Source: Candidatus Omnitrophota bacterium
GTDB lineage: Bacteria; Omnitrophota; Gorgyraeia; 2-01-FULL-45-10
Reading direction: 5' to 3'
Assembly (NCBI GenBank): GCA_028699255.1
Contig: JAQVUX010000004.1
Coordinates: 88,668-152,667, forward strand
DNA length: 64,000 nt
The notes below the pieces were generated by a model, which saw only the letters and a program-made list of their open reading frames with translations, had not been told where the DNA came from and searched no databases. The position numbers were made by a program, and so were the translations under genes. Position 1 is the first letter of the stretch. Each line of letters opens with the position of its first letter. Positions 5,176 through 63,420 of the stretch are shown in pieces.

Positions 5176-5531
5176 TCCCCTGTAGCTCAGTCGGTAGAGC
5201 ATCTGGCTGTGCACGAGCGAAGCGCCGAGTGCAAAACTCGGCGTACAGCGCCTAAAGTTAGCAGCCTGCGACGGAAACGTCGCGGTGAAAAGCGAGTAAA
5301 TTCAGGGAAATCCGTCAATGTATAATTGGCGGGCTATCCTGAGCCAAGCCTCACAATTGTGGGGAAGGTGCAGAGACTAGAGACTCGCTACCTAAGTCCT
5401 TTCGTCATTGCGAGGCCCGAAGGGCCGAAGCAATCTCAAGGGATATGGTAATGGTATAGTCCGACTCTCCGGGTAACCGGAGTCAGATCGTAACCAGAGT
5501 GTCCGAGGTTCGAGTCCTCGCGGGGGAGCCA
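5176..5531 (+). tRNA. tRNA-Asn(GUU) interrupted by a group I intron; exons 5176-5210 and 5491-5531, CCA encoded
   Basis: The exons give the acceptor stem TCCCCTG/CGGGGGA, discriminator G73, D-arm GCTC-AGTCGGTA-GAGC and anticodon stem TCTGG/CCAGA. The anticodon loop CUGU|UAA and T-arm CGAGG-TTCGAGT-CCTCG follow. The spliced sequence is near-identical in layout to E. coli tRNA-Asn. Confidence 0.8.
5211..5490 (+). ncRNA. Group I intron in the tRNA-Asn anticodon loop, 280 nt, no ORF
   Basis: The intron follows a U and ends in G. It contains R-like CAGAGACTA, S-like TATAGTCC and P-like AATTCAGGGAAAT elements, and a P9-like hairpin CCGGGTAACCGG. Confidence 0.7.
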
Positions 5532-9542: not shown

Positions 9543-10286
9543 ATGAAGAAGAGCCTGATTTTCAGCAGTATATTAGTCTCGGCGTTTTTAGTTGTACATA
9601 ACGTTTATGCTCAGGAACCCGCAATTGATTATAAGCAATTGATAGCTAAATGCAGTGAGGCAATTAAACAGGCAAAATCATACAATGCTAAGATGGAATA
9701 CGCAAACTCCTTTACAATTAACTCGCAGGAGAACAAGGGTAATTCCGCGGAGTTAAGCATAGCTTTTATAAGCCCGGACAAATTTAAGATAGCGCAAGTT
9801 ATAGATGAGGGCTCGGATGAGAAGTTGTGGGACGGCTGGATAGTTATAGGCGATGATTATTATGTTCTTAAGCCGGTTTTCGGATGGGCAAAGGAAGATG
9901 ACGATAATCGCAAAACAATGTGCAGAGCTTACTCTCCCGAAGGCATTATAAAACAGTTAGCAGAGATCGAAAAGGGGTACAGGAGAGATTCGATAAGCTC
10001 TGCTACTAAAGACGGAATAGAATATTTTGTAATCAAATATTTATTCGGCAAAGAATCAATTAATGTCGAATCTTTACCGCCGGAATTAAAAGATAGCAAA
10101 ATAAACGGAACATATGAAATTTGGATCAATAAAAATAATTATTTACCGGTAAAACAATCGGAGGAAGTTTCCTATTATTCGAATGAGCGGAATAAGGGGA
10201 CTTCATCAGCGGTCACAAATTATTTCGCATATAATGATGATAAGATAAAAATCGACGTGCCTGTGCCCGGCGATAAGACTTTTTAA
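9543..10286 (+). CDS. Hypothetical exported protein
   Basis: Signal peptide, no motif recognised. Confidence 0.4.
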   Translation: MKKSLIFSSILVSAFLVVHNVYAQEPAIDYKQLIAKCSEAIKQAKSYNAKMEYANSFTINSQENKGNSAELSIAFISPDKFKIAQVIDEGSDEKLWDGWIVIGDDYYVLKPVFGWAKEDDDNRKTMCRAYSPEGIIKQLAEIEKGYRRDSISSATKDGIEYFVIKYLFGKESINVESLPPELKDSKINGTYEIWINKNNYLPVKQSEEVSYYSNERNKGTSSAVTNYFAYNDDKIKIDVPVPGDKTF

Positions 10287-32366: not shown

Positions 32367-33383
32367 ATGTTTTTAGCAATAATTTTAATAATAATACTTC
32401 TCGGCATAGCGGCGCTTACCGCCGCGGCTGAAATATCGATAATCGCGGTATCGAGAATAAAGCTCCGCAGGCTTGCCCTGTCCGGGTCTAAGTCTGCACA
32501 GCTCGTCATGAAGATGCTCGAGACGCCGGAGAAGTTCTTCAGCACGATCCTGGTCGTGAACAACATCGTCGATACGCTTATCGCGGCCATCGTTACTGTA
32601 ATAATGATCGAGGCCGTCGGCAATGAAAGTACCGGAATAGTGCTGGCCACGGTAATAGGTTCTCTGGCGATAATAGTTTTTGAGGTCGTGGCGAAGACGC
32701 TGGCCGCGACGCACTCGGAGAAGCTTGCCACTATCCTCGCGAAACCAGTTTATAGCTTCATAGTCATATTTTCCCCAGTAGTAAAAGGGCTTATCTATGT
32801 AACGAACTTCATACTTCATCTTGTCAGCGCACAGGCTCCGGCGAAACCCGCTCTTGTTACGGATGAGGAGTTGAAAGCTCTTATAAAGATAGGCGCGGAA
32901 GAAGACATTCAGCATAAAGAGAAATATAAGATGCTCTCGAAGGTTTTTGATTTCAGCGACGCGATCGTAAAAAATGTGATGACACCAAAAAAAGACATGG
33001 TCGCGATAAATATGGATTCGCGATTTGAGGATATTGTCGAAAATGTCCTGGAGTCCGGTTATTCAAGACTGCCGGTATATAAAGGAAGTCCGGAAAACAT
33101 AATCGGCATAATAAATATGAAGGATCTGCTTAGCATCTCGCTCAACAAAGAACTCGTCGTGCTTCAGGATATAGTGTATCCGGCTATATTTTTTCCCGGG
33201 ACGAAGAAGGTGTCCGAGCTTCTCAAGGAGTTCCAAAAAGGACATACCCACATCGCTCTTATAACAGATCCCGCCGGCAAACTTATGGGCCTTGTTACGC
33301 TCGAAGACCTCCTCGAAGAGATCGTCGGTGAGATTGAAGATGAGTACGATGTCCGCGCCAACTACTATAAAAATCCGCAATAA
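32367..33383 (+). CDS. CNNM/DUF21 transporter-associated protein with CBS pair (HlyC/CorC family)
   Basis: Four N-terminal TM helices (DUF21) followed by tandem CBS domains. Confidence 0.7.
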   Translation: MFLAIILIIILLGIAALTAAAEISIIAVSRIKLRRLALSGSKSAQLVMKMLETPEKFFSTILVVNNIVDTLIAAIVTVIMIEAVGNESTGIVLATVIGSLAIIVFEVVAKTLAATHSEKLATILAKPVYSFIVIFSPVVKGLIYVTNFILHLVSAQAPAKPALVTDEELKALIKIGAEEDIQHKEKYKMLSKVFDFSDAIVKNVMTPKKDMVAINMDSRFEDIVENVLESGYSRLPVYKGSPENIIGIINMKDLLSISLNKELVVLQDIVYPAIFFPGTKKVSELLKEFQKGHTHIALITDPAGKLMGLVTLEDLLEEIVGEIEDEYDVRANYYKNPQ

Positions 33384-33386
33384 TAC

Positions 33387-33431
33387 TTGACAAAAAGTAC
33401 GCCTGTGTTACAATTTTAAAAAATGTAACAC
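33387..33431 (+). promoter_or_regulatory. Putative sigma-70 promoter (TTGACA-16-TACAAT) overlapped by a perfect palindrome GTGTTACA-N11-TGTAACAC; candidate NikR operator
   Basis: The -35 is at 33387-33392 and the -10 at 33409-33414. The palindrome arms are at 33405-33412 and 33424-33431. Confidence 0.5.
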
Positions 33432-33444
33432 GAAGGAGCAACCG

Positions 33445-33858
33445 ATGGGGCTTGTAAGGTTTGGTGTTTCGCTCGAAAAAAATCTTCTCGATAAATTCGA
33501 CAAGCTGTGCGCCGGCAAGAATTATTCCAACCGCTCGGAGGCATTCCGCGATCTTATCCGCCAGGAACTCGTCAAAAAGGAATGGGAGGCGGACGAAGAT
33601 GTTGCCGGGACAATTACCATTATTTACGACCATCACCAGCGTGAACTCGTTACCAAGCTTATGGATATCCAGCACGATCAGGGTAAGGATATCATATCGA
33701 CCCAGCATATTCACGTAGACCACCATAATTGCATGGAGATAATAGCGGTGAGGGGAAGCGCAAAGAGTGTCCGCAAACTTGCCGATACCCTTAAAGCGGT
33801 AAAAGGCGTTAAGCATGCGACTCTTGGGATGTCGAGTACTGGAAAACATATAGGATGA
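33445..33858 (+). CDS. nikR: Nickel-responsive regulator NikR
   Basis: N-terminal ribbon-helix-helix (RFGVSLEKNLLDKFD). The C-terminal metal-binding domain carries the H..H...C..H ligand set (HQRE...HIHVDHHNCMEI). Confidence 0.8.
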   Translation: MGLVRFGVSLEKNLLDKFDKLCAGKNYSNRSEAFRDLIRQELVKKEWEADEDVAGTITIIYDHHQRELVTKLMDIQHDQGKDIISTQHIHVDHHNCMEIIAVRGSAKSVRKLADTLKAVKGVKHATLGMSSTGKHIG

Positions 33859-33907
33859 TTTTTTTGGAGTATAGTAGCACGATTATAATATTAGTAGCAC
33901 TATAAGG

Positions 33908-34894
33908 ATGGGGTATAGCATGAAGTCCGGCAAGATAATCGTAACCGGCGGCGCAGGTTTTATCGGGAGTTGTTTCTTGTGGAAACTGAACCGGGAAGGT
34001 ATTACGAATATAATAGTCGTTGATAATCTCGGGTCTTCCGATAAATGGCGGAATTTAGCAGGAAAGCAGTTTTTGGATTATATACAGAAAGACGATTTTC
34101 TGGGATTACTTGAAGGGGGCGTTAACATCGATGTTTCGGCTATCGTTCATTTAGGCGCCTGCAGTTCTACCACAGAAACCAATGCCGTGTATTTTATAAA
34201 AAATAATTACGAATACTCTAAAGCGCTTGCCAGGTGGTCGGAAGCCAACAAAGTAAAATTTATTTACGCCTCGTCGGCCGCTACATATGGGGACGGAGAA
34301 TTCGGATATGACGATTCCGATAAAACTACCCGTATACTGCGCCCGTTAAATATGTATGGTTATTCCAAACAACTTTTTGATCTGTGGATATTGAACAATA
34401 AGCTTAATCGGACTATGACGGGTGTTAAGTTTTTTAATGTATTCGGACCTAACGAATACCATAAAGGCGAGATGATGAGCGTTGTTTGTAAAAAATTCAT
34501 GGATGTGGATCGAACCGGACGAATAGAATTATTTAAATCTTACAAGCATGATTATAAGGACGGCGAGCAAAAGAGGGATTTTATATACGTAAAAGACGTG
34601 GTGGATGTTCTGGCATATTTTCTGGAACACTCGAAGCAGTCGGGTATATTTAATCTGGGATGCGGCGCGGCGCATAGCTGGAATGAGCTTGGGCGTGCTA
34701 TGTTCACCGCTCTTGGGAAAAAGCCCTGTATGGAATATGTTGACATGCCCGAAGGTTTAAGGCCGAAATATCAATATTTTACGCGAGCAAAGATGGATAA
34801 ATTAAGAAAAGCCGGCTACAAAGCTCGTTTTACACCGTTAGAAGAAGCGGTTAAAGATTATGCCGGTTATTTAAACGGGAAAAAATATTTATAA
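33908..34894 (+). CDS. hldD: ADP-L-glycero-D-manno-heptose 6-epimerase
   Basis: Near-collinear with E. coli HldD: IIVTGGAGFIGS, GACSSTTE, YASSAATYG, YGYSK and FFNVFGP. Confidence 0.85.
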   Translation: MGYSMKSGKIIVTGGAGFIGSCFLWKLNREGITNIIVVDNLGSSDKWRNLAGKQFLDYIQKDDFLGLLEGGVNIDVSAIVHLGACSSTTETNAVYFIKNNYEYSKALARWSEANKVKFIYASSAATYGDGEFGYDDSDKTTRILRPLNMYGYSKQLFDLWILNNKLNRTMTGVKFFNVFGPNEYHKGEMMSVVCKKFMDVDRTGRIELFKSYKHDYKDGEQKRDFIYVKDVVDVLAYFLEHSKQSGIFNLGCGAAHSWNELGRAMFTALGKKPCMEYVDMPEGLRPKYQYFTRAKMDKLRKAGYKARFTPLEEAVKDYAGYLNGKKYL

Positions 34895-34912
34895 GATTGG
34901 GAAGGACATACA

Positions 34913-35260
34913 ATGCATGATTTAAAATACGCGAATGAGATTTTAGCGGCTTTAAATAAAGCCGCTGTTAAAAAAAATAAGGCCTGCGCGATCGTCGTAA
35001 ATGTCAGGCTGAATCCTTTCAGCCATGTTACAGCCGAAGGGCTTGACGCTACCTTTAGGCTCCTTGCGGAGAGTGAGGGGTACGGCGATATACGGCTCAA
35101 TGTGCGAACTCTCGAATTTATCCTGCGTTGTAAAAGTTGCAGAAAAGTTTCACGGCATGGGGAGCCTATTTTTAAGTGCCCTGATTGCGGGAGTCCCGAT
35201 TTTGACATAGAAAAAGGCGATGATTTTTGCATAGACTCGATAGATGTGAACAAGAAATAA
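34913..35260 (+). CDS. hypA: Hydrogenase/urease nickel incorporation protein HypA
   Basis: MHD/E N-terminus. CxxC...CxxC zinc knuckle (CKSC...CPDC). Confidence 0.75.
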   Translation: MHDLKYANEILAALNKAAVKKNKACAIVVNVRLNPFSHVTAEGLDATFRLLAESEGYGDIRLNVRTLEFILRCKSCRKVSRHGEPIFKCPDCGSPDFDIEKGDDFCIDSIDVNKK

Positions 35261-35289
35261 TAAGGAATAATAATGAAAGGAGAAATGTA

Positions 35290-36717
35290 ATGTGGCGTAG
35301 TGTAATGAGAATAGCGGTGGTTATTATAGTTGCATCATTTTTATTACCGCCCATATCATGGGCGAGCGAGGATGAGCTTCGACGGGAAATAACCGCGCTT
35401 AAAGCGAAAGTTGCGGAGATGGATCAACTAAAGGCTCAAATAGCGGAGCTTCAGAAGCAGATGAGCGAGCAGAAGTGCAGTATACTGGCGCAACAGGGTA
35501 CCGTTAATGAGGTAAAACAGTCTTTGATACAGGCGGTGCCTTCCGAGGGTCTTATAAAATATGCGCCGGGCGAGGGGGTCGAGTTGCCGTGCGGGTTTAA
35601 ATTGCAGGCAGACGCTACCCTTATAATACAGGGCACTCCGAATGCCAATAATCCGGGCAGTGGCAATAAGTCCCAGTGCGATGCGTCGTGGTCAGCCGAT
35701 ATATTCATCGAAAAGGCGTTTGATGACTGGGGGCTCGCGCTTATGCATCTCGAGCCCGGGCAGTCGGACACGGTCGAGGGCGTTATGTCGCTGTATAGCA
35801 ATGTCAATAGGGACACTAACGATACCAGCGCTAATATACCGATAACGGAATTATGGTACGAGCATTATCTATTCGACAAGCAACTGACTATAACGGCCGG
35901 TAAGCTGGATCCGGCCAATTATTTGGATCAAAACGAATACGCATTCAATGAGTGCACGCAGTTTTTAGGCCGAATATTCAGGAATTCGCCCGCGATAGAA
36001 TGGCCTAACGATAATACGCTCGGCGCCTCTGTGACAGTGGCCCCGGAAGCCGTGCCGTATATTGCGGTGAACGCTTCGTATTTTAACGCCGATAATACAT
36101 ATAAAAATATATTTGATAAGCCGTTCATATCGGCGGAGCTTACATTCATGCCGGCAAAGGCGTTCAAATATGATGAAAATATGTGGGGCGGAAACTATAG
36201 GTTTTATTGGTGGTATAACGGCCTCGAGCATTCTAAATTGGTGAATGTGGGCGAATCGGCGGCTGATGTTTGCAAGGAGAAGAATACCGGTTTCGGCATA
36301 AGCTTTGACCAGATGATAACCGACATTTACGGAGTGTTTGCCCGTCTGGGCTGGGAGAGGCACGATATAAATATAGTCAGTACCAATCCCAATGCCGCGC
36401 CGTTGGAGGGCATGTGGGCGCTTGGTGCTCAGATGAAAGGTAAATATTGGAAGAGACCAGATGACGTGCTCGCCTTCGCTATAGGCCAGGCGGTTCCGAG
36501 TAGCCAGTATAAAAATTCTGACGATGCAATAGCCGCCGGCGCCGGCGGGGCACCCGAGGGGCATTTCGAAGTTTATTATAATATGAAACTTACGAAGAAT
36601 CTTGCTATAAGCCCGGACTTCCAGTGGATATGGAATCCGCATGGAATAAGCGAGTCATATCAAGGCTACGCCAATTCAATATTCGTTTATGGCGTAAGAG
36701 CGCAGTTGGACTTTTAG
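35290..36717 (+). CDS. Outer-membrane porin with N-terminal coiled coil (OprB-like), within the nickel locus
   Basis: RBS AAAGGAG. Signal peptide and a coiled coil, then an aromatic-rich beta-barrel ending in ...QLDF. Confidence 0.5.
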   Translation: MWRSVMRIAVVIIVASFLLPPISWASEDELRREITALKAKVAEMDQLKAQIAELQKQMSEQKCSILAQQGTVNEVKQSLIQAVPSEGLIKYAPGEGVELPCGFKLQADATLIIQGTPNANNPGSGNKSQCDASWSADIFIEKAFDDWGLALMHLEPGQSDTVEGVMSLYSNVNRDTNDTSANIPITELWYEHYLFDKQLTITAGKLDPANYLDQNEYAFNECTQFLGRIFRNSPAIEWPNDNTLGASVTVAPEAVPYIAVNASYFNADNTYKNIFDKPFISAELTFMPAKAFKYDENMWGGNYRFYWWYNGLEHSKLVNVGESAADVCKEKNTGFGISFDQMITDIYGVFARLGWERHDINIVSTNPNAAPLEGMWALGAQMKGKYWKRPDDVLAFAIGQAVPSSQYKNSDDAIAAGAGGAPEGHFEVYYNMKLTKNLAISPDFQWIWNPHGISESYQGYANSIFVYGVRAQLDF

Positions 36718-36731
36718 AAAGGAGAGAGAGT

Positions 36732-37415
36732 ATGCATATACCAGACGGATATTTAGGGCCTGTGACATGCGGGTTTTTTTATGCGGTCATGGTTCCTGTA
36801 TGGGCTTTTGCTTCAAAAATAGTTAAGAAAACTTTAAGCGTAAAACAGGTGCCGCTATTGGCAATCGGCGCGGCGTTCAGTTTTATAATAATGATGTTCA
36901 ACGTGCCGATACCGGGCGGTACAACAGGACACGCGGTAGGCGGCGTGCTCGTAGCGATATTGCTGGGGCCGTGGGCGGCATGCATAGCTATTACGGTGGC
37001 GCTTGTCATACAGGCGCTTCTCTTCGGAGACGGAGGGATTACCGCGATAGGCGCGAATTGTTTTAATATGGCCGTCGTCCTGCCGTTTGCGGGATATTAT
37101 ATATATAAAATAATAGCGCACAACGCCCCCGTCGATTCTAATAGACGGGTTATAGCCGCCGGCATGGCCGGATATATCGCGATTAATGTCGCGGCGGGGC
37201 TGACCGGGTTTGAATTCGGCATTCAACCGCTTATGCATCATACCGCGACCGGACAAGCGCTATACTGTCCTTACGGGTTAAATGTAGCGCTTCCCGCCAT
37301 GTTAGGTGAACACATGCTGGTATTCGGGTGGGTAGAGGCTATAGTTACCGCGCTCGTTATTAAGTATTTACAGAAACAGGCTCCGGAGCTTTTGAATGAA
37401 GGGAGGGTACAATAA
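36732..37415 (+). CDS. cbiM: Ni/Co ECF-type transporter substrate-specific component CbiM/NikM
   Basis: Hallmark MHIPDGYL N-terminus. RBS GGAGAGAGAG. Confidence 0.85.
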   Translation: MHIPDGYLGPVTCGFFYAVMVPVWAFASKIVKKTLSVKQVPLLAIGAAFSFIIMMFNVPIPGGTTGHAVGGVLVAILLGPWAACIAITVALVIQALLFGDGGITAIGANCFNMAVVLPFAGYYIYKIIAHNAPVDSNRRVIAAGMAGYIAINVAAGLTGFEFGIQPLMHHTATGQALYCPYGLNVALPAMLGEHMLVFGWVEAIVTALVIKYLQKQAPELLNEGRVQ

Positions 37416-37750
37416 TGAAAATAGTAACCAAGTTTTGGATCGCGTTGGCGATACTTATTGTGCTTTCGCCGCTCGGGCTGTTATTGCCGGAACATTTTAA
37501 GGCAGGCGCCGCATGGGGCGAGTGGGGAGCCGAAGAGATGAAAGAACTCGTAGGATATGTACCGCAAGGGTTGCAAAAACTGGCCGCTCTCTGGAACGCG
37601 CCTATACCCGACTACGCCTTTAAAGGTTGGGAAGAAAAAGGGTTGCCCCATCTCAGCTTAGCCTATATAATATCAGCTGTAGCAGGTATAGGTATTACCG
37701 TTATCGTGGTGATGTGTATAGGCAGGATGTTGACCAAAAAAGAGGACTGA
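37415..37750 (+). CDS. CbiN/NikN-like small membrane component
   Basis: Two TM helices flanking a periplasmic segment. Translationally coupled between cbiM and cbiQ. Confidence 0.5.
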   Translation: MKIVTKFWIALAILIVLSPLGLLLPEHFKAGAAWGEWGAEEMKELVGYVPQGLQKLAALWNAPIPDYAFKGWEEKGLPHLSLAYIISAVAGIGITVIVVMCIGRMLTKKED

Positions 37751-38607
37751 TGGCAAAAGTAAAGAATGCGGATTTCATAGAGCGCTCTATAATGGGCGCT
37801 CTATCTTTCTTGAAGGAAGCGGTTTTCTCCGACGAGTACGCTTCGAAAAATGGGCTTCTGCAGTCTCTCGATCCCAGGATAAAACTCGCGACATTCGCCG
37901 TATTTCTTTGTGCGGTACTTTTTACAAAAAGCATCCCGGCAGTATTATCTCTTTACATTGTATCGCTGGCGCTCGCGCGCCTATCCGGTATCGATCTCGG
38001 CTTCTTCCTGAAAAGGACGTGGATATTCATACCGCTATTCTCTTTCTTTATCGCGGTGCCGGCCATATTCAGCGTGTTTACGCCTGGGGATGCTATGGCA
38101 AATTTTAAAATTATCGGGTTAAATTTTGTGATAACGCGCCAGGGTTTTTTCGGCGCCGTCCTATTTTTAGCCCGGGTTATAACCTCGGTATCGTTCGCGG
38201 TACTCCTCAGTATAACCACGAAACATTTCGAACTTCTTAAAAGTTTGCGCACCTTCGGGGTACCGCAGGTTTTTGTCATGATACTGGGTATCTGCTACAG
38301 ATATATATATCTATTTACGGACGTGGTGCAAAATACCTATCTTGCCATTAGAAGCCGCGTTGGTGCCCGCATGCACCATAAAAAGGGCAGACAGATTGTT
38401 GCCTGGAACATGGCTTCGTTGTGGCACAGATCCTACCGCATGAACGAGGAGGTTTATAATTCCATGCTCGCGCGCGGGTATACGGGCGAGCCGGTTACAG
38501 TGAGCGATTTTAAAACTAAGACAGCGGACTGGGTATGGTTATTTTTCGTTATCTTTTTATCCGCCGCGGTTCTTTATTGCGGCAGTGCCTGGGAAATAAA
38601 AATATGA
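37750..38607 (+). CDS. cbiQ: ECF transporter transmembrane (T) component CbiQ/NikQ
   Basis: Polytopic membrane protein at the expected position. The internal start MAKVKN at 37750 overlaps the cbiN stop. Confidence 0.7.
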   Translation: MAKVKNADFIERSIMGALSFLKEAVFSDEYASKNGLLQSLDPRIKLATFAVFLCAVLFTKSIPAVLSLYIVSLALARLSGIDLGFFLKRTWIFIPLFSFFIAVPAIFSVFTPGDAMANFKIIGLNFVITRQGFFGAVLFLARVITSVSFAVLLSITTKHFELLKSLRTFGVPQVFVMILGICYRYIYLFTDVVQNTYLAIRSRVGARMHHKKGRQIVAWNMASLWHRSYRMNEEVYNSMLARGYTGEPVTVSDFKTKTADWVWLFFVIFLSAAVLYCGSAWEIKI

Positions 38608-39422
38608 ACGAGAATATATTTGAATTAAAAGACGTGTATTTTTCATACCTCGATAAATATCCCGCCTTAAACGGTATTGATCTTGATATAGTCAAAGGGC
38701 AGAGGGTGGCTATCATAGGGGCTAATGGTTGCGGTAAGTCGACGCTTCTGCATATTCTCGACGGACTTTTCTTTCCCCGGCGCGGCACTGTAAAAGCTTT
38801 TGGTGGAGACCTGAGCGAGAAAGCGCTCGCCGATGAGCGGTATGGCCGCCATTTCAGGGGGAAGGTTGGGCTTGTTTTTCAAAACCCGGATGTTCAGCTA
38901 TTTTGTCCGACGGTAAAAGAAGAGATATTTTTCGGTCCGCTTAATTTTGGTTTTAAACATACGCAGATTGAACAGACATTCGATGTAATTACGGAGATAT
39001 TCGGGATAAAAGAGCTTACCGGCAGAATGCCGCACCAATTAAGCGTGGGTGAGAAACGCAAGGTTGCTATGGCGTCAGTCCTGATATCGGGGCCGGAAGT
39101 GCTGCTCCTCGATGAGCCGACCGCAGGCCTTGATCCCAGAACTTCCAGGGATTTGGTCGACCTTTTAAACCGTTACCATGCCGACGGGAAGACTATAGTG
39201 ACCGCGACGCACGATATGCACATAGTAGGCGAGATCGCGGATATTATTTATGTCTTCGGTCGTGATAAAAGGATAATAAGGAGCGGTCCTCCGGAAGAGA
39301 TATTGGCAGATACCGGATTTTTGCAGGAACATAATCTTATACATACTCACATGCATACTCACAGCGGCAAGACGCATGCGCATCCGCATCAGCATCCGCT
39401 TCATGATCATCCGCACGCATAA
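38604..39422 (+). CDS. cbiO: ECF transporter ATPase CbiO/NikO with C-terminal His-rich tail
   Basis: Walker A GANGCGKST, LSVGEKRK signature and Walker B LLLDEPT. The last 26 residues are HTHMHTHSGKTHAHPHQHPLHDHPHA. Confidence 0.85.
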   Translation: MNENIFELKDVYFSYLDKYPALNGIDLDIVKGQRVAIIGANGCGKSTLLHILDGLFFPRRGTVKAFGGDLSEKALADERYGRHFRGKVGLVFQNPDVQLFCPTVKEEIFFGPLNFGFKHTQIEQTFDVITEIFGIKELTGRMPHQLSVGEKRKVAMASVLISGPEVLLLDEPTAGLDPRTSRDLVDLLNRYHADGKTIVTATHDMHIVGEIADIIYVFGRDKRIIRSGPPEEILADTGFLQEHNLIHTHMHTHSGKTHAHPHQHPLHDHPHA

Positions 39423-39496
39423 GACGAAAGCAGAAAAATATTTCAAATTTCCGGGAATAAAATTCCATTTTACGCGTCTAATATACGAGAGCTCAA

Positions 39497-40045
39497 ATGA
39501 ACGAAGATATCCTATGCATCGACAGATTTCTTAAAGGCGAAGAGAGAGGTTTCGAGGAACTGGTAAGAAGATACCAGGATCGGGTTCTCAACATAGTCCG
39601 TTCGCTGACCGGTAAAGACGCCGAAAGCGAAGACATAGCGCAGGAAGTGTTTATGAAAGTGTACTACGGGTTAAAATCTTTCAAGAAGGATTCCCGGTTT
39701 TCGACATGGCTTTACCGGATCACTGTAAACACGACATATAGTTTCCATCGCGGCAAGAAGGTTTTTTTCGAAGGCGCTGAAGCGCTTGAAAATAGTCCGG
39801 ATCCGCGTAAAGATCCAGGGGCGGCGCTACTCGCGAAAGAGAGAGAGGCAATGCTCCGCAAAGCCATGGATGATGTGCCCATCAATTTCAGGACGGCATT
39901 GGTGCTTAAAGACGTAGAAGGATTAAGTTACACCGAGATTTCGGAAGTTTTGGGTTGCCGGATAGGAACGGTGGAGTCAAGAATATACAGGGCAAGGCAA
40001 TTTCTTAGAGAGAGCCTGCTAAAATTAAAGGGAGGAGCGGTATGA
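39497..40045 (+). CDS. ECF (group IV) sigma-70 family sigma factor
   Basis: Region 2 (FMKVYYGL...STWLYRITVN) and a region 4 HTH (LSYTEISEVLGCRIGTVESR). Confidence 0.8.
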   Translation: MNEDILCIDRFLKGEERGFEELVRRYQDRVLNIVRSLTGKDAESEDIAQEVFMKVYYGLKSFKKDSRFSTWLYRITVNTTYSFHRGKKVFFEGAEALENSPDPRKDPGAALLAKEREAMLRKAMDDVPINFRTALVLKDVEGLSYTEISEVLGCRIGTVESRIYRARQFLRESLLKLKGGAV

Positions 40046-45796: not shown

Positions 45797-46244
45797 GGGG
45801 GTGAAAGGTATCGACTCAGATACGCAGAGCACAAGCAGCATGTAGAGGTTGCTAGGAGGCCTCTTGGCGCAAGCCATTCCTACGGTAACGTGGGGATAAA
45901 ACACCTGGCAAAAAATCAAATGCTGAAAACGTAAAAGTTCCAGCAACGGTGAACGAACTCCTAAGCACCATGCAAGTGGTGCCGGGGCCAGTTCTACCGG
46001 TAGCGTTACCTTTATAAGGTAACCCGTCAGCCGGCCTATTTCCGCGGGGCCGGGTCTGGCGACACTAGCGGGATAGTCCGACGGTGTTTAGCCTTTGGCG
46101 CTTTCGGGCGAAGCTTTCAAAGGATACCTTTTCGAAATTCCGCCTACTGAAGTTCGAAAGGGGAAATTAAAGAGCAGGATAAACATGTAGCGGCTTATGT
46201 TTTGATGTTTGAGGACGGCGGTTCAAATCCGCCCACCTCCACCA
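45797..46244 (+). ncRNA. ssrA: tmRNA (ssrA), about 448 nt, CCA encoded
   Basis: Lies immediately downstream of smpB. The 5' GGGGGUG...GGUAUCGAC pairs with a 3' tRNA-like end: T-arm GGCGG-UUCAAAU-CCGCC, then CACCUCC-A-CCA. The tag reading frame could not be read confidently by eye. Confidence 0.7.
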
Positions 46245-46597: not shown

Positions 46598-46682
46598 GCG
46601 GAAGTGGCGGAACTGGCATACGCGCAGGTCTCAGAAGCCTGTGCCGCAAGGCTTGAGGGTTCAAATCCCTCCTTCCGCACCA
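46598..46682 (+). tRNA. tRNA-Leu(CAG), CCA encoded
   Basis: Acceptor GCGGAAG/CTTCCGC, anticodon loop CUCAGAA, long variable arm, T-arm GAGGG-TTCAAAT-CCCTC. Confidence 0.85.
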
Positions 46683-53216: not shown

Positions 53217-53293
53217 CGGGGCGTAGCGCAGCTGGCTAGCGCGCTTGGTTTGGGACCAAGAAGTCGACAGTTCGAATCTGTCCGCCCCGACCA
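53217..53293 (+). tRNA. tRNA-Pro(UGG), CCA encoded
   Basis: Acceptor CGGGGCG/CGCCCCG, anticodon loop TTTGGGA, T-arm GACAG-TTCGAAT-CTGTC. Confidence 0.9.
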
Positions 53294-56252: not shown

Positions 56253-56319
56253 CTTATATTGACACCATATCTCTCGAGGCTTATAATTAACATAAATAAG
56301 CTATATTCCTTTGGCTACA

Positions 56320-56456
56320 TATAAAAGGAAGCGGGGGAACCAAGCCACGGTCTACGATAGATCTTGGGGCGAATATCTAAAATATCTACAATGTAGTAGA
56401 TTAGGGTCACTCAACCCGAGCCCGACAGCTAACCCCGTAAGCTAACATGAGAGAAT
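56320..56456 (+). promoter_or_regulatory. Candidate c-di-AMP riboswitch (ydaO/kimA class) in the kdp leader
   Basis: GCGGGGGAACCA, UUGGGGCGAAUAUC, and GGGUCACUCAACCCGAGCCCGACAGCUAACCCCGUAAGC resemble conserved ydaO-motif segments as recalled from memory. An intrinsic terminator follows. Confidence 0.55.
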
Positions 56457-56458
56457 GC

Positions 56459-56773: not shown

Positions 56774-58519
56774 ATGAATTGGAATAATATTATTCAAGGC
56801 GGGATCTATCTTATAGCGCTAATCCTATTAGTTAAGCCGCTTGGGACATATATGGCCCGCATATACGAGGCAAAACCCGTTGGTCTTAACGTATGGTTTG
56901 GGCCTATTGAAAGATTAGTTTATCGCGTGTCAGGTATTAATCCTGAAGCAGGTATGTCTTGGAAGACATATGCTTTGGCAGTAATGATGTTCAATATTAT
57001 TGGCATAGTCGTTGTTTACGCTATTCAGAGACTTCAGCCACATCTTCCCCTAAACCCAATGTCCATACCACAAGTCCCCCCAGACTTAGCTTTCAATACC
57101 GCTGTGAGCTTTGCTACAAACACCAACTGGCAAAGTTATGGTGGGGAGGCCACATTAAGCTATTTTACTCAGATGATGGCTTTAACAGTTCAGAATTTTG
57201 TGTCAGCGGCAACGGGCATGGCAGTGCTTGTGGCTGTGATAAGAGGATTTATCCAAAAACAAACGGAAACCATAGGTAACTTCTGGGTAGATCTTGTTCG
57301 ATCTACATTATATATACTGCTTCCACTAGCTATAATACTTTCCGTTGTATTGGCTTCCCAGGGTGTTGTTCAGACATTTGCTCCGAGCGTAAAAGCTACG
57401 CTTATCGAAGCAACTAAAGATGCTACTGGAAAGATTGTTCCTGAACAGGTGATAGCTCTCGGTCCTGCCGCTTCTCAAATAGCTATTAAACAGCTAGGAA
57501 CTAATGGGGGAGGGTTTTTCAATGTCAATTCTGCCCATCCCTTTGAGAACCCCACGCCTCTGTCAAACTTCGTGGAGGTTTTGGCCATACTTTTAATAGC
57601 TGCAGCATTATGCTATACATTCGGATACATGGTTAAAGACAGGCGCCAAGGATGGGCGATTCTGGCCGCTATGTTAATTATCTTTATCCCATGTCTCTGG
57701 TTATGTACGCACATTGAACAACAGGGGAATCCTTTGTTAAGCAAATTAGGAATTGATCAGAGTGCGAGTGCTATGCAGCCAGGCGGTAATATGGAAGGCA
57801 AGGAAGCACGTTTTGGCATCGCGAATTCAGCTTTATGGGCAACAGCTACGACTGCCGCCTCCAATGGTTCGGTCAACTCAATGCATGATTCTTACATGCC
57901 TCTTGGCGGGATGATATCGATGTGGCTTATGCAATTAGGGGAGGTTATATTTGGCGGGGTTGGTTCAGGTCTTTACGGTATGATCGCATTTATTATTGTC
58001 GCTGTATTTATATCGGGCCTTATGATAGGGCGCACTCCCGAATATTTAGGAAAGAAAATCGAAGCGTATGAAATGAAAATGGCTTCTCTTATGATTTTAA
58101 TACCTCCGATGATTGTTCTTATGGGCACAGCCATTTCGGTAATTGTGCCTGCTGCTAAAAACTCAATTTTAAACCCTGGGCCGCATGGATTTAGTGAAAT
58201 ATTATATGCTTTTTCATCGGCAGGAAATAACAACGGAAGCGCGTTTGCGGGTTTAACTACGAATACGTTTTTCTATAATATCGCTCAAGGATTAGCGATG
58301 TTTTTCGCTAGATACTGGCTTATAATACCGGCTCTTGCGATAGCCGGATCACTTTCTAAGAAAAAGATAGTGCCTGTAAGTCAAGGAACTTTGCCTACAC
58401 ATACGCCGCTTTTTATTGTATTTCTGGTTATGGTTATATTGATTGTAGGTGCGCTCACTTTTTTCCCGGCATTGGCTCTTGGGCCTATTGTTGAGCACTT
58501 AACCCTTACTTCTATATGA
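56774..58519 (+). CDS. kdpA: K+-transporting ATPase subunit KdpA
   Basis: Typical KdpA N-terminus and selectivity-filter-like G-rich loops. Length 581 aa. Confidence 0.9.
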
Positions 58520-60579
58520 AAACAAAATCATTATTCGACCTCGCTATTGTAATTCCGGCGATTGTGGATTCTATAAAAAAATTGAACCCCAAGCATCAGA
58601 TTAAGAATCCAGTTATGTTTGTCGTGTTGGCGGGAAGCGTGCTTACCACAGGCTTATATATTCAGGCCATTGTTGCGCATGGGGAAGCACCGGCAAGTTT
58701 TATTCTGGCTATAACGCTGTGGCTTTGGTTCACGCTAATATTTGCTAACTTCGCGGAAGCTATGGCTGAAGGTCGCGGTAAGGCGCAAGCCGCAAGCTTA
58801 AGGAAGGCAAGACGGGATACCCCAGCGAAGAAACTCTCAAGCCCTAAATATGGCTCAAGCTATGAAACAATTTCAGCTACGACAATAAGGAAAGGAGATA
58901 TTGTTTTAATCGAAGCGGGCGACATTATACCGATGGATGGTGAGATTATAGAAGGAGTAGCTTCGGTTGATGAAAGCGCGATAACAGGAGAAAGCGCGCC
59001 CGTCATACGCGAATCAGGCGGGGATCGCAACGCTGTTACCGGGGGAACGCGAGTACTTTCAGACTGGATAGTAGTACGAGTTAGTTCAAATCCTGGCGAG
59101 ACATTCTTAGATCATATGATAGCGATGGTCGAAGGCGCGAAACGACAGAAGACGCCCAACGAAATAGCGCTTAGCATTTTACTTGCGGTATTTACGATAA
59201 TATTTCTTTTAGCCACAGTAACGCTCCTTCCATTTTCTATCTATAGTGTTGTTAGCGCTGGCCATGGTGTACCTATTACAGTAACAGTATTAGTGGCGTT
59301 ACTCGTATGCCTTATACCGACTACTATAGGAGGCCTTTTGCCTGCCATTGGTATCGCTGGAATGGATAGGATGATCCAGGCAAACGTTATAGCTACTTCA
59401 GGACGTGCCGTTGAAGCGGCAGGGGATGTTGATGTTCTACTGCTTGATAAAACAGGTACTATAACGTTGGGTAATAGACAGGCGGTTGCTTTTATACCGG
59501 CCCAGGACGTCAAAGTCGAAGCATTGGCGGATGCGGCACAACTGGCTTCATTATCTGACGAAACTCCGGAAGGCAGAAGCATAGTGATATTAGCTAAAGA
59601 GAAATACAATATTAGAGAACGCCAAATCCATGAGCTTGAAGCGAAATTTATCCCTTTTACTGCCCAAACAAGAATGAGCGGAGTAGATTTAGGTGATGGA
59701 CGGCAGATCAGAAAAGGCTCAGCCGATGCGATAGAAGATTATGTGAAAAAGCTCGGAGGACTTTTCCCTGAAGATTTGAAATTAAATATTCAGAACATAT
59801 CCAAGACTGGCGGCACGCCGCTAGTAGTAGCGGAACATAAGAATGTATTAGGTGTTATTCAGTTGAAGGATATAGTGAAGGGTGGTATCAAAGAACGTTT
59901 CGCGGAACTGCGACGTATGGGAATCAAAACTATAATGATCACAGGTGATAACCCATTGACAGCTGCGGCCATAGCTGCCGAGGCAGGTATGGATGATTTT
60001 TTAGCGCAGGCGACACCTGAAACAAAACTTAAGCTTATCCGGGAGATGCAGCTTGGCGGTAGACTTGTCGCAATGACAGGTGATGGTACTAATGATGCAC
60101 CCGCTCTCGCGCAGGCGGATGTCGCAGTTGCTATGAATACAGGGACGCAGGCCGCGAAGGAAGCGGGCAATCTCGTAGATCTCGATTCTAATCCTACAAA
60201 ATTAATTGAGATCGTTGAAATTGGAAAACAATTACTTATGACCCGAGGATCATTAACTACTTTTAGTATCTCTAATGATGTTTCAAAATACTTTGCGATC
60301 ATTCCGGCGGCTTTTGTAGGAACATATCCTCAGCTAGACGCGCTTAATATAATGCACCTTACCACGCCGTCTAGCGCTGTTCTATCTGCGGTTATTTTTA
60401 ACGCCATTATCATAATAATGCTAATTCCACTGGCTCTGCGCGGTATACCTTATAAGCCGATGTCGGCAAGTCGCCTTCTGAGAGACAATCTTTTGATCTA
60501 TGGCATAGGCGGCATTATCGCGCCATTTATAGGGATAAAACTAATTGATATGTTGTTGGCTGCCTTGCATTTGGTATAA
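58516..60579 (+). CDS. kdpB: K+-transporting P-type ATPase subunit KdpB
   Basis: DKTGTIT phosphorylation motif. TGDN and [10 protein letters not shown] motifs. Confidence 0.9.
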
Positions 60580-60640
60580 AGCCGATGTCGGAGACATCGG
60601 CACTTAGCTGGCACCGTGGCTTAATAAACTTGGGATAATT

Positions 60641-61219
60641 ATGTTTAGAGAACAGTTAAAATCTGCCATTCTTGTTTTTATAATATTGACGATAATCACA
60701 GGAGTTCTCTACCCGCTATTTGTAACAGGAATTGCTCAAGCTTTTTTCCATACCAAAGCTAACGGTAGCCTTATATATCGAAATGGAAAAATAATTGGTT
60801 CAGCCCTTATAGGACAACCATTTGATGATCCTAAATATCTATGGGGACGGCTGTCGGCCACATCGCCCGTGCCTTATAATTCTAATTCGTCATCGGGCTC
60901 AAATATTGGGCCGTCGAATGGAGCACTTTTAGAAACTGTAAAGTCCCGTATTGAAAAACTGCGTGCAGCCGATCCTAAAAACAAGATGCCTATACCCGTA
61001 GATTTAGTGACATCATCGGCGAGCGGGCTTGATCCGCATATAAGTAAGGCTTCCGCTTATTATCAGGTTCCTCGAATAGCGAAACAACTAGGGCTCTCTG
61101 TAAATATTGTAAAAAACATTGTTGATCAAAACGCAAAAGGGCGTCTCTTTGGTTTAATCGGAGAGCCGGTTGTAAACGTATTGAAGGTAAATATGGATTT
61201 GGATTCATACAAAAAATAG
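60641..61219 (+). CDS. kdpC: K+-transporting ATPase subunit KdpC
   Basis: Single N-terminal TM helix. SGLDPHIS motif. Confidence 0.85.
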   Translation: MFREQLKSAILVFIILTIITGVLYPLFVTGIAQAFFHTKANGSLIYRNGKIIGSALIGQPFDDPKYLWGRLSATSPVPYNSNSSSGSNIGPSNGALLETVKSRIEKLRAADPKNKMPIPVDLVTSSASGLDPHISKASAYYQVPRIAKQLGLSVNIVKNIVDQNAKGRLFGLIGEPVVNVLKVNMDLDSYKK

Positions 61220-61233
61220 AGTATATTATAGAC

Positions 61234-63420
61234 ATGACAAACGAAAATAATAATATCGACGAAATTCTGGCGCGGGTAAAGAGCGAAGGATCTAACCGCG
61301 GAAAGCTTAAGATTTTCTTCGGGGCAATGGCCGGAGTAGGGAAAACTTATTCCATGCTTGAAGCGGCAAGAGTTCTGAAAAAAGAAGGAATTGATGTTGT
61401 TGTCGGTTACGTAGAGACGCATGGACGCGCAGACACAGACGTTTTATTAGAGGGCCTTGAAATCCTGTTTCGTAAAGAAGTGTCATATAAAAACATCAAA
61501 CTTAGTGAATTCGATGTTGATTCGGCCTTAAAGAGGCGTCCCTCTACGATATTGGTTGATGAGTTGGCTCACTCGAACGCCCCCGGTTCTCGTCATCCTA
61601 AGCGTTGGCAGGATGTAGAGGAGCTCTTGGACGCAGGCATTAATGTCTATACGACTCTAAATGTCCAACACTGTGATAGCGCCAATGACGTTGTGGCCCA
61701 GGTTACAGGGGTAACAGTGCGCGAAACCGTCCCTGATACCTTTGTTGAAAAAGCAGACGATATAGAATTAGTAGATCTCCCTCCAGAAGACTTACTTAAG
61801 CGCCTCAAAGAAGGCAAAGTTTATCTTGGTGAGCAAGCCCAGCGGGCAATCCAGAATTTCTTTCAGATAGGAAATCTTATTGCACTGCGCCAATTAGCAC
61901 TACAGTATACAGCTAGGATCGTAGACGCTAAAATGCGATCCTATAAACAGGCGTATTCTATAACAAAGGTTTGGAATGTAAGAGATCGACTTTTAGTATG
62001 CATAAGCGCCAGCCCTCGAGCCACACGGCTTATACGGGCAGGAAAGCGCATTGCTTCCAGCATTGGTGTTGAATGGATTGTTGCTTACGTTGAGCCGATT
62101 TCTCAAATACCTAATAGAAGGGGCAAGGCCGATATAGTAGAGACAATGCGCTTTGCCGAACGATTGGGCGCTGAAACGGTTACACTTACCGGGTTAAATA
62201 TAGCGGAGACTATAATCGAATACGCTCGGTCAAGGAACATCACAAAAATTATTATTGGAAAGCCTGGCAAGCCCAAGTGGCATGAATTTATTTTTGGGTC
62301 CGTGATAAATGCGCTTGCGAGAAAATGCGGTGAGATAGATTTGTATCTTATGAGTGGAGAAACGCAGGAGCCGCCTGCCAAATACGAAGCGCCCACTTTA
62401 AAACCATTCCCATGGAAAGGTTTATTATGGGCTATGGGCGTCGTTGCAATTTGTACCATAGTAGATAGTTTTTTATTTAAGCACTTAAGCCTTGTAAATT
62501 TAATAATGATTTATTTATTAGGAGTTACCTGGATTGCTTATAAGTATGGCCGCAGAGCGTCAATTATAGCCTCGATCTTAAGCGTCTTATCTTTTGATTT
62601 CTTTTTTGTCCCGCCTTATTTCACATTTGCCGTAGCCGATGTAGAATATTTTATAACATTCACAGTTATGTTAGCGGTAGGCGTTATAATAGGAAGTCTT
62701 ACAGGACGACTTCGGCAGCAGACTACAGCTATGCGACTGCGGGAAAACAGGACTCAGGCATTATATTATCTGAATAGGGATTTGGCCAAAACATCCAGTC
62801 TGGATGAAATCTTTCAGATATCGGTTCATTATGTTCAAGAGTTTTTTAAATGTCCGGCTGTTATTTTTACGCCCGTAAAAGGGAAGAGTATCGCAATTCG
62901 TTTTGGCGATACCAAAGTAATGCCATTAAGCCCAAACGAAGAAGCTGTGGCCCAGTGGGTATATGAGCATAGAAAGATGGCGGGGAAGGATACGGACACA
63001 CTTCCAGGCTCACGAGGTATTTATTTGCCGTTAACCGGTGCTGAAAAGACCGTAGGCGTTATTGGGCTATTTCCTAGAGAAGAGAGGCAGTTAAACGATC
63101 CGGATCAATTGCATATACTCGAAATATTCGTAAAACAAACTGCCTCGGCGGTAGAAGGCGCTCAGCTTGCCGCCGCCGCGGTTAAAACTGATGCGGAAAT
63201 CGAAAGCCAGCGTCTGCGAAACTTGCTTTTAAGTACATTTTCTCTGGATCTTCCCGCGCCGTTAAAAATAATTTCTGAAGCCACTGCGGAATTGTTAAAA
63301 CCCGAGAATATGGATGATAAATTAAAACGTAGTGAATTAATTCAGAAGATCCGCGAACAGGCACAGCGCTTGAACGACCTCTCCTCCGAAATGACAAAGA
63401 TAATTAAATCGGAAGAGTAA
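61234..63420 (+). CDS. kdpD: KdpD-like sensor lacking the histidine kinase module (KdpD N-terminal domain, Usp, 4 TM and GAF only)
   Basis: GKLKIFFGAMAGVGKT P-loop of the KdpD N-domain, a Usp region and a TM cluster. It ends after a GAF-like region at 728 aa. No HisKA/HATPase domain and no kdpE follow. Confidence 0.75.
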   Translation: MTNENNNIDEILARVKSEGSNRGKLKIFFGAMAGVGKTYSMLEAARVLKKEGIDVVVGYVETHGRADTDVLLEGLEILFRKEVSYKNIKLSEFDVDSALKRRPSTILVDELAHSNAPGSRHPKRWQDVEELLDAGINVYTTLNVQHCDSANDVVAQVTGVTVRETVPDTFVEKADDIELVDLPPEDLLKRLKEGKVYLGEQAQRAIQNFFQIGNLIALRQLALQYTARIVDAKMRSYKQAYSITKVWNVRDRLLVCISASPRATRLIRAGKRIASSIGVEWIVAYVEPISQIPNRRGKADIVETMRFAERLGAETVTLTGLNIAETIIEYARSRNITKIIIGKPGKPKWHEFIFGSVINALARKCGEIDLYLMSGETQEPPAKYEAPTLKPFPWKGLLWAMGVVAICTIVDSFLFKHLSLVNLIMIYLLGVTWIAYKYGRRASIIASILSVLSFDFFFVPPYFTFAVADVEYFITFTVMLAVGVIIGSLTGRLRQQTTAMRLRENRTQALYYLNRDLAKTSSLDEIFQISVHYVQEFFKCPAVIFTPVKGKSIAIRFGDTKVMPLSPNEEAVAQWVYEHRKMAGKDTDTLPGSRGIYLPLTGAEKTVGVIGLFPREERQLNDPDQLHILEIFVKQTASAVEGAQLAAAAVKTDAEIESQRLRNLLLSTFSLDLPAPLKIISEATAELLKPENMDDKLKRSELIQKIREQAQRLNDLSSEMTKIIKSEE

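Follow-up and report, generated by a model that had tools for sequence, protein, structure and literature searches.

The stretch analysed here, a 64,000-nt segment of contig JAQVUX010000004.1 from a Candidatus Omnitrophota bacterium (hereafter the window), carries between positions 33387 and 39422 genes for a nickel regulator, a lipopolysaccharide (LPS) heptose epimerase, a metallochaperone, an outer-membrane porin and an energy-coupling factor (ECF) type importer, which raises the question of whether these form a single uptake system, for which metal, and under what control. According to Pfam and NCBIfam assignments the order of the eight genes is nikR-hldD-hypA-porin-nikM-nikN-nikQ-nikO, all of them having the same direction and every gap being 50 nt or shorter or replaced by an overlap. 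Judging from the sequence and its conservation in related genomes, the locus is very probably a single nickel-acquisition operon repressed by nickel-loaded NikR. All the features named in an earlier sequence-only reading of this DNA were located, and the starts of three genes were revised to 33920 (hldD), 35290 (the porin, with an ATG) and 36732 (nikM, with the product beginning MHIPDG) based on the gene calls of the identical public contig and on the sequence itself.

Control by NikR is suggested first of all by the region upstream of nikR. Promoter P1 consists of a -35 element TTGACA (33387-33392), a 16-nt spacer and an extended -10 element TG-n-TACAAT (33409-33414), matches the sigma-70 consensus in 11 of 12 positions besides the TG, and is the top-scoring promoter-like site in the scan of positions 33250-39700; the TTGACA-N16-TACnAT layout is also found upstream of nikR in related loci. 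As the sequence-only reading had correctly stated, this near-consensus promoter is overlapped by a dyad, GTGTTACA-N11-TGTAACAC, a perfect inverted repeat located at 33405-33431 and designated O1, which covers the -10 element and the expected transcription start. No second match to the dyad exists in the 64-kb window at up to three mismatches, the expectation from shuffled sequences being 0.06. The spacer had been thought to be shorter than usual in NikR sites, which turned out to be only an effect of how the arms were drawn: with 7-bp arms the dyad becomes GTGTTAC-N13-GTAACAC, with the standard N13 spacer and 27-bp geometry. It has no mismatches to the consensus of the delta-proteobacterial NikR box, GTGTTAC-N13/14-GTAACAC, described in 2004 for the nikMNQO operons of Geobacter, Desulfuromonas and Desulfovibrio and sharing its 27-28 bp structure with the enterobacterial site (Rodionov et al. 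2004, Genome Biol 5:R90, PMC545781). Since this is the canonical published 27-bp layout, O1 represents an operator type that is already known and not a novel one.

For comparison, 80 loci with homologues of the porin, almost all of them from Omnitrophota, were taken from an alignment-based scan with one genome per species, and the window proteins were mapped onto them by tblastn (individual loci are designated below with the letter L and a number). The pattern GTGYTAC-N13-GTARCAC is present 4-30 nt before the nikR ATG in about 44 Omnitrophota loci, with one outlier at a distance of 62 nt, the half-sites being conserved and the AT-rich spacers variable. Upstream of nikMNQO, a delta-type NikR box is also found on a Firestonebacteria contig and, as two boxes in tandem, in a Smithella genome. 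The identity with the published consensus and the retention of the dyad upstream of nikR support its assignment, proposed earlier as a candidate, as a predicted autoregulatory NikR operator overlapping the nikR promoter. The delta-type box was reportedly surveyed more widely by Rodionov in 2006 (J Bacteriol) and is said to have been examined experimentally by Benanti and Chivers in 2010.

At L005:1073-1099, outside the window, a TTGACA-N16-TACAAT promoter is overlapped by a NikR-box-like site with one mismatch (GTGTTACAATTTTTTTAAATATAACAC). The promoter precedes a glycine-cleavage operon, gcvT-gcvH-gcvP1-gcvP2-lipoate ligase-radical SAM, and the site could be either an extra NikR target or a chance match. 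In Smithella (L162/L163:5226-5284) the two tandem boxes, with zero and one mismatch, lie ahead of small open reading frames (ORFs), one of which has a weak match to an outer-membrane beta-barrel family; next come nikM-nikN-nikQ-nikO including the histidine motif described below, with nikR convergent downstream and hypF/hypE upstream.

The regulator itself combines a ribbon-helix-helix (RHH) domain (PF01402) with a NikR_C domain (PF08753), scores 189.5 bits with NF003381 against a cutoff of 105 and possesses the nickel-site motif H88-x-H90-x5-C96. HypA, which fits the nickel theme, is recognized by PF01155 (65.1 bits vs 28.9) and has an N-terminal MHD and two CxxC motifs, C73xxC76 and C89xxC92. 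The transporter genes overlap or adjoin each other and include a single ATP-binding cassette (ABC) ATPase gene. NikM matches Pfam CbiM with 208.6 bits and NF008873 with 360 bits and contains both His2 and His67, and NikQ matches TIGR02454 (148.8 bits vs 111.8). The importer had been described as CbiMNQO; its remaining gene, however, codes for a protein with a PDGLE domain and not for CbiN (PF02553), and the product matches positions 231-322, the C-terminal part, of the fused M+N model NF005598, being the split form of a fused Nik(MN) protein. Because its N component is a PDGLE-domain protein, the importer is assigned here to NikMNQO instead. Nickel rather than cobalt is its predicted substrate, as indicated by the presence of nikR, its box and hypA and by the lack of a B12 riboswitch. 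The features of the locus are listed in Table 1.

Table 1. Features of the nik locus in window coordinates, with the basis of each assignment
Feature	Position	Strand	Basis
Promoter P1	33387..33414	+	promoter scan
Operator O1 (NikR box), predicted	33405..33431		consensus match
nikR ribosome-binding site GAAGGAG	33433..33439	+	sequence reading
nikR	33445..33858	+	RHH domain and NikR_C; Pfam, NCBIfam NF003381
Box O2	33859..33900		conservation after nikR
hldD, ADP-L-glycero-D-manno-heptose 6-epimerase	33920..34894	+	TIGR02197
hypA, nickel metallochaperone	34913..35260	+	Pfam HypA (PF01155)
OprB-family outer-membrane porin	35290..36717	+	Pfam OprB (PF04966), AF2, Foldseek
nikM, ECF S component	36732..37415	+	Pfam CbiM (PF01891), NF008873
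nikN, PDGLE-domain membrane protein	37415..37750	+	Pfam PDGLE (PF13190), NF005598
nikQ, T component, CbiQ family	37750..38607	+	Pfam CbiQ (PF02361), TIGR02454
nikO, ECF-type ABC ATPase	38604..39422	+	Pfam ABC_tran (PF00005), NCBIfam ECF ATPase models
NikO His motif, residues 247-272	39342..39419	+	alignment of homologues

A second box, O2, was overlooked in the sequence-only reading though it is conserved directly after nikR. It starts immediately 3' of the nikR stop codon and has the structure T7-N8-GTAGCACGA-N10-GTAGCAC, with the T7 run, invariant among related loci, at 33859-33865 and the repeat at 33874-33900. The 7-mers of the repeat correspond to the right half-site of the NikR box and are placed in the same orientation with a 20-bp period, thus forming a direct and not an inverted repeat. 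Apart from O1 and O2, the window has no pair of half-sites free of mismatches. The pattern T7-N7-9-GTARCAC has 44 matches in 1.1 Mb of porin loci, 42 of which are located right after nikR, one is an O1 and one is in L003, and no matches in 0.75 Mb of unrelated hldD loci used as a control. O2 is probably a second NikR site, which would give the transport genes a control of their own apart from that of nikR; a weak internal promoter, discerned by eye as TTGGAG-N17-AATATT, may be involved. The 2004 paper already lists NikR sites with everted half-sites (Rodionov et al., PMC545781), so the half-site orientation seems to be flexible in this NikR lineage. An intrinsic terminator at the T7 run was considered and rejected, as there is no GC hairpin before it.

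Several observations in related loci concern the region after nikR. In L003, which has no nikR, an O1-like box and a T-run/GTAACAC box lie side by side (9888-9945) directly upstream of porin-nikMNQO, and it looks as if nikR had been deleted from between its two boxes. In one Omnitrophota clade the post-nikR box and the porin start codon are separated by a leader, conserved, rich in GC and about 130 nt long, which does not occur in the window (L048:9847-9993, L051:9865-10011, L055:9875-10021, L063:8828-8974, L066:4458-4604, L069:9439-9585, L071:9848-9994, L072:9846-9992, L076:9767-9913, L079:9865-10011 and L081:9840-9986). The leader holds a CCCCGCC/GGCGGGG hairpin with some CG-to-UA covariation, and a long-range pairing of its segment AUAAGUAUACC with the Shine-Dalgarno and start region of the porin gene would sequester the ribosome-binding site; there is no Rfam match at the gathering thresholds or at E values up to 1, and the leader is a candidate for a new cis-regulatory RNA. 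A small conserved ORF of about 55 aa is located between the post-nikR box and the porin gene in L053, L058 and L068.

The porin was earlier characterized as OprB-like with a coiled-coil N-terminus, which agrees with the present results: besides a signal peptide there is a helix predicted at residues 28-66 by the AlphaFold2 (AF2) model, and heptad-like residues are conserved in the family, pointing to a periplasmic coiled coil. Pfam OprB is matched with 99.8 bits (gathering threshold 22.9), over profile positions 66-372 only. The AF2 model has a predicted local distance difference test (pLDDT) score of 77.7 and contains 19 strand segments according to DSSP, a figure which applies to the model and is not a barrel strand count. 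The best Foldseek match is P. putida OprB 4gey (E 4e-17, template modelling (TM) scores 0.61/0.68), and a sequence search of the PDB gave no match.

What the porin does is suggested mainly by its neighbors. The gene is linked to nikR in 49 of the 72 family loci with enough upstream DNA (41 with direct adjacency, five with the order nikR-hldD-hypA-porin and three with nikR slightly further away), a CbiM/NikM gene is directly downstream of it in 45 of 73 loci, and the succession nikR-porin-nikM is found in the window and at least 40 loci. Paralogues occur in cassettes for other metals, often directly after the matching metalloregulator: Fur-family regulator-porin-ZnuA-ABC ATPase (ZnuC) in L057, L070 and L080, porins after a DtxR/MntR-type regulator in L038 and L039, and FeoB-porin in L008, L017, L032, L050, L054 and L059. 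In L024, L028 and L030 a DUF4198 protein directly precedes the porin, with FeoB confirmed upstream only in L030. The public annotation of these genes is 'carbohydrate porin'; one family member (P0234) is labelled 'high affinity Mn2+ porin' by JGI. This context, in which all identified neighbors are metal systems, argues against a carbohydrate role for the subfamily and suggests that the label is a misannotation. The window also contains a canonical OprB porin (262.6 bits) beside a sugar transporter of the major facilitator superfamily (MFS) at 510-3286 (-), a second porin-importer pair, with which the nik-linked porin shares 26% identity over 173 aa. The existence of a nickel-specific porin clade was considered and rejected because the cassette contexts are interleaved in the neighbor-joining tree, and nothing relevant on a link between OprB and NikR was found by the literature search.

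In some nikR-porin loci the place of NikMNQO is taken by two small membrane proteins, about 92 and 104 aa in length (L053:2480-3076, L066:5983-6621, L068:5696-6296, L071:11382-11975, and a single copy at L034:11439-11702). Each has D-H or E-H motifs conserved within hydrophobic segments and matches no Pfam family, and the pair may be an undescribed small nickel permease.

The ATPase NikO ends, as had been noticed earlier, in a histidine-rich tail of 26 residues (247-272), HTHMHTHSGKTHAHPHQHPLHDHPHA. Its core is the motif HxHxHxH-x4-HxHxHxH formed by H247, H249, H251, H253, H258, H260, H262 and H264, followed by H267, H269 and H271. In an alignment of 54 homologues with identity down to 44%, H247, H249, H251, H253, H258, H260 and H264 are invariant and H262 is at least 90% conserved, so that the motif is conserved as strongly as the Walker motifs. 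Far from being missing in orthologues, the tail is carried by all 120 of the closest homologues (59-100% identity). The tailed clade spans Omnitrophota, Smithella, Firestonebacteria, Chloroflexota and Terriglobia, some members having further C-terminal domains; the search among representative sequences returned mostly fused double ATPases, with 11 single-domain clusters being informative. The closest solved relatives, the CbiO chains 3gfo and 5x3x, align only up to about residue 245, beyond which no Pfam or NCBIfam domain was found either. AF2 places a beta-hairpin at residues 248-261 with pLDDT below 50, so no structural claim is made. A correlation of the tail with the presence of NikN was considered and rejected, since the tail-less class also has a divergent PDGLE NikN. 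No publication describing a His-rich motif in NikO or CbiO was found by the literature search.

HldD matches TIGR02197 at the equivalog level (396 bits vs cutoff 274.6) and is an ordinary orthologue. The metagenome scan revealed hundreds of hldD relatives with 52-62% identity in other phyla, none having nik or hypA neighbors. The gene was previously considered to be unrelated to the rest of the locus and simply embedded in it; it recurs, however, together with hypA in the nik operons of Omnitrophota. Three of the four hldD loci with 69-100% identity (L082-L084) belong to nik operons, the copy in L085 (65% identity) adjoins hypA on a short contig, and the copies in L086 and L087 (62-65%) have no nik or hypA neighbor. 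Two arrangements exist, with hldD-hypA located between nikR and the porin in the window, L004, L005, L010, L015 and L018, and after nikN in L051, L060, L061, L076, L079 and L081; in L069 hldD follows nikN and the locus ends before the position of hypA, and L056 has hypA alone. Given these two arrangements and the porins of the two groups being only about 38% identical, the pair appears to have been kept inside nik operons through rearrangement and long divergence, which is not what a chance insertion would look like, even if it does not reveal the reason for the retention.

Several of the results weigh against a single nickel operon under NikR or against parts of it, and the alternatives they suggest differ in probability. 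That the dyad is no more than a palindrome associated with the promoter, or that it terminates transcription of the upstream CNNM/CorC gene, is hardly credible: it does lie 22 nt past the stop codon of that gene and could fold into an 8-bp hairpin, but it has no T tract, the loop of the hairpin would be 11 nt long and AT-rich, and the half-sites hold one consensus over about 44 loci with no hairpin-type covariation, in addition to matching the published operator exactly. A cobalt importer CbiMNQO serving B12 synthesis, with an incidental link to NikR, is very unlikely. NCBIfam does name NikM a cobalt transporter, the equivalogs being 'cobalt transporter CbiM' and 'cobalt ECF transporter T component CbiQ', and JGI labels the homologues 'cobalt/nickel transport system', but the operon is headed by nikR with its box and includes hypA, Rfam finds no B12 riboswitch in the window, the N component has the PDGLE domain seen in Nik(MN) fusions, and the same layout with nikR recurs in dozens of loci. 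HypA stays below the NCBIfam equivalog cutoffs (55.8 vs 88.1), and there is no nickel enzyme within the 64-kb window: no hydrogenase, urease or carbon monoxide dehydrogenase (CODH) domains were detected in a scan of 46 flanking ORFs, among them all those of 250 aa or longer, which bears out the earlier remark that the window lacks hydrogenase and urease structural genes. A demand for nickel is nevertheless expected since Omnitrophota as a phylum encode [NiFe] hydrogenases and CODH/acetyl-CoA synthase (ACS); no relevant literature on Omnitrophota and nickel was found by the literature search. More weight has to be given to the objections to O2, which is a direct repeat unlike the inverted O1 and has an invariant T7 run with no counterpart in the latter; we know of no NikR operator that is not an inverted repeat, and the promoter scan of the window region scored no consensus promoter at O2. 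Given the possible weak -35 and -10 elements around a 17-nt spacer, the box could instead function solely as a promoter or UP element, or else bind some other factor or act as a signal in the RNA. We consider this unlikely, as GTAGCAC, with an identical spacing of 13 nt, also forms the right half of O1 boxes in many loci, boxes of the O2 type are confined to the neighborhood of nikR or nik genes, half-site orientation appears flexible from the everted sites of the 2004 paper (PMC545781), and a T run with no preceding hairpin is not an intrinsic terminator.

For the porin and hldD the balance is closer. The porin had been proposed as an outer-membrane entry route for nickel or cobalt, of which metal entry is upheld by the nikR-porin-nikM linkage and the paralogues in Zn, Fe and Mn cassettes, and nickel selectivity has become doubtful. 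In the tree the Ni-, Fe- and Zn-linked porins are interleaved, and the FeoB-linked paralogues include some with 64-67% identity to the window porin; for these reasons we regard the porin as supported in a metal-uptake role, and its family as metal-uptake porins, and do not claim it to be selective for nickel. A possible, if doubtful, alternative is a general cation or even sugar pore which only raises outer-membrane permeability when metals are scarce. The Pfam description of OprB as 'carbohydrate-selective' and the similarity across metals are in its favor, yet the canonical OprB beside the sugar transporter is only remotely similar and every identified context of the subfamily is a metal-uptake cassette. 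The general-cation version is compatible with the metal-uptake role preferred here, with which only the sugar version conflicts. Almost an even chance is given to hldD being a passenger with no functional tie to nickel, retained by chance synteny within one lineage: it is an ordinary orthologue whose relatives in other phyla (52-62% identity) have no nik or hypA neighbors, many nik operons of the phylum do without it, no literature tying heptose synthesis to NikR was found by the search, and placing an essential LPS gene under nickel repression is awkward. Against this stands the long retention implied by the two operon positions of the hldD-hypA block and the divergence of the accompanying porins. 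As for the NikO motif, a sister NikMNQO subfamily, whose NikO is 36-40% identical and encoded next to nikR-porin, lacks the tail in nine of nine cases. The tail thus appears to be a fixed feature of one NikO subfamily that is not needed for transport as such, and because it is fixed there and dispensable for the transporter type overall, the motif is easier to reconcile with regulation or hand-off than with catalysis.

On the reading of the locus as a nickel-acquisition operon, the parts would act as follows. When cytoplasmic Ni2+ is sufficient, the NikR tetramer on O1 would block RNA polymerase and thereby switch off nikR and the uptake genes, and O2 would give NikR a second grip on the transport genes, either by serving a weak internal promoter as operator or by acting as a roadblock. 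Under nickel scarcity the porin would make the outer membrane more permeable to divalent cations, NikMN would bind Ni2+ via its Met1-His2/His67 site, and NikQ and NikO would power the import. The HxHxHxH-x4-HxHxHxH motif of NikO may bind the incoming Ni2+ on the cytoplasmic side and, once loaded, either throttle the ATPase (trans-inhibition) or pass the metal to HypA. Heptose-less E. coli mutants have a reduced porin content, and for this reason co-expression of HldD, the LPS heptose epimerase, might speculatively support the LPS core needed for porin assembly, which is the weakest part of the model.

A more far-reaching possibility, which we rate as rather improbable in its entirety, is that the operon constitutes a self-contained nickel relay across the whole envelope, including two features with no described counterpart. 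In such a relay the direct-repeat operator T7-N8-GTAGCACGA-N10-GTARYAY may be used by NikR, which would need a DNA-binding mode other than the known symmetric one; the NikO motif may be a nickel sensor gating the ECF ATPase, or else a docking or hand-off site for HypA; around these two features, a single coiled-coil OprB family may provide interchangeable modules of Ni, Zn, Fe and Mn regulons; and HldD-dependent synthesis of the LPS core may be tied to porin deployment.

Compared with systems described before, the locus most resembles the delta-proteobacterial NikR regulon (PMC545781), with which it shares the operator consensus and spacing, the transporter family and the linkage of nikR to its target. 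It differs in the Omnitrophota host, in nikR being the first and autoregulated gene of the operon, and in having an extra direct-repeat box after nikR as well as the porin, hypA and hldD. The E. coli NikR-nikABCDE operator, GTATGA-N16-TCATAC (Rodionov et al. 2004, PMC545781), is likewise a two-fold symmetric site of 27-28 bp placed over the promoter and mediates nickel-dependent repression of uptake, but its half-site sequence is different and the transporter is a binding-protein-dependent ABC importer and not of the ECF type. Group I ECF metal importers of the CbiMNQO/NikMNQO kind, with R. capsulatus CbiMQO (5x3x) and NikM2 of T. tengcongensis as examples, have the same M, Q and O components and the same N-terminal Met-His and His67 metal site in the S component. 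In contrast to the solved CbiO chains, NikO of the window bears the C-terminal His motif, and NikN is a separate PDGLE protein.

Outer-membrane counterparts are MnoP of Bradyrhizobium japonicum, a manganese importer (Hohle et al. 2011), and, in G. sulfurreducens, an OprB porin encoded upstream of feoAB and predicted to be regulated by Fur. In both cases, as here, an outer-membrane channel belongs to a metal-starvation regulon together with an inner-membrane importer; the present case is distinguished by NikR and nickel, by the N-terminal coiled coil and by a subfamily extending over Ni, Zn, Fe and Mn cassettes in one phylum. MnoP is taken by us to be an OprB family member, membership being documented for the Geobacter porin only. 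DcaP (6eus) and OmpM1 (8byt), both among the fold matches of the porin, also have a beta-barrel following a periplasmic helical stalk, whereas the barrel described here is OprB-like, with 4gey as the best match, and no SLH domain was detected in the porin.

Substrate-sensing C-terminal extensions are known in the ABC importer ATPases MetN and ModC, and His-rich nickel-binding tails in HypB, SlyD, UreE and RcnA. By analogy with the former, the cytoplasmic C-terminal addition of NikO could bind the transported substrate, which is a functional speculation; the tail has no homology to the regulatory domains of MetN (C2) or ModC and is only about 26 residues long. With the latter it shares the His-rich composition typical of nickel handlers.

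The core of the system, NikR with its box and NikMNQO, is known, textbook nickel regulation, and the current understanding is not overturned. What is added is that a regulon of NikR box and NikMNQO, as defined in delta-proteobacteria, is now seen in an uncultured phylum as well, the same regulatory code occurring in Omnitrophota, Smithella and Firestonebacteria. The operon architecture, with the regulator in first place, the direct-repeat box, a metal-cassette porin and the hldD-hypA block, is undescribed in the literature searched, and so is the NikO His motif, a candidate means of controlling an ECF importer post-translationally or of handing metal over. The passage of free metal ions across the outer membrane is poorly understood, and a porin family found in Ni, Zn, Fe and Mn cassettes offers tractable candidates for its study.

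Beyond the operon, a CNNM/CorC-type protein with CBS domains is encoded at 32367-33383 (+), its gene stopping 4 nt before the nikR promoter. In at least eight related loci (e.g., L003, L007, L010, L012 and L018) homologues likewise precede the nik operon, and this adjacency may reflect plain synteny or a metal-related neighbor. Other features of the window are a group I catalytic intron at 5243-5483 (+) (Rfam, 70.5 bits), a tmRNA gene at 45797-46244 (+) (149.4 bits), tRNA genes at 46598-46679 and 53217-53290, and a c-di-AMP riboswitch at 56289-56458 (+) (84.3 bits) upstream of kdpA-kdpB-kdpC-kdpD (56774-63420).

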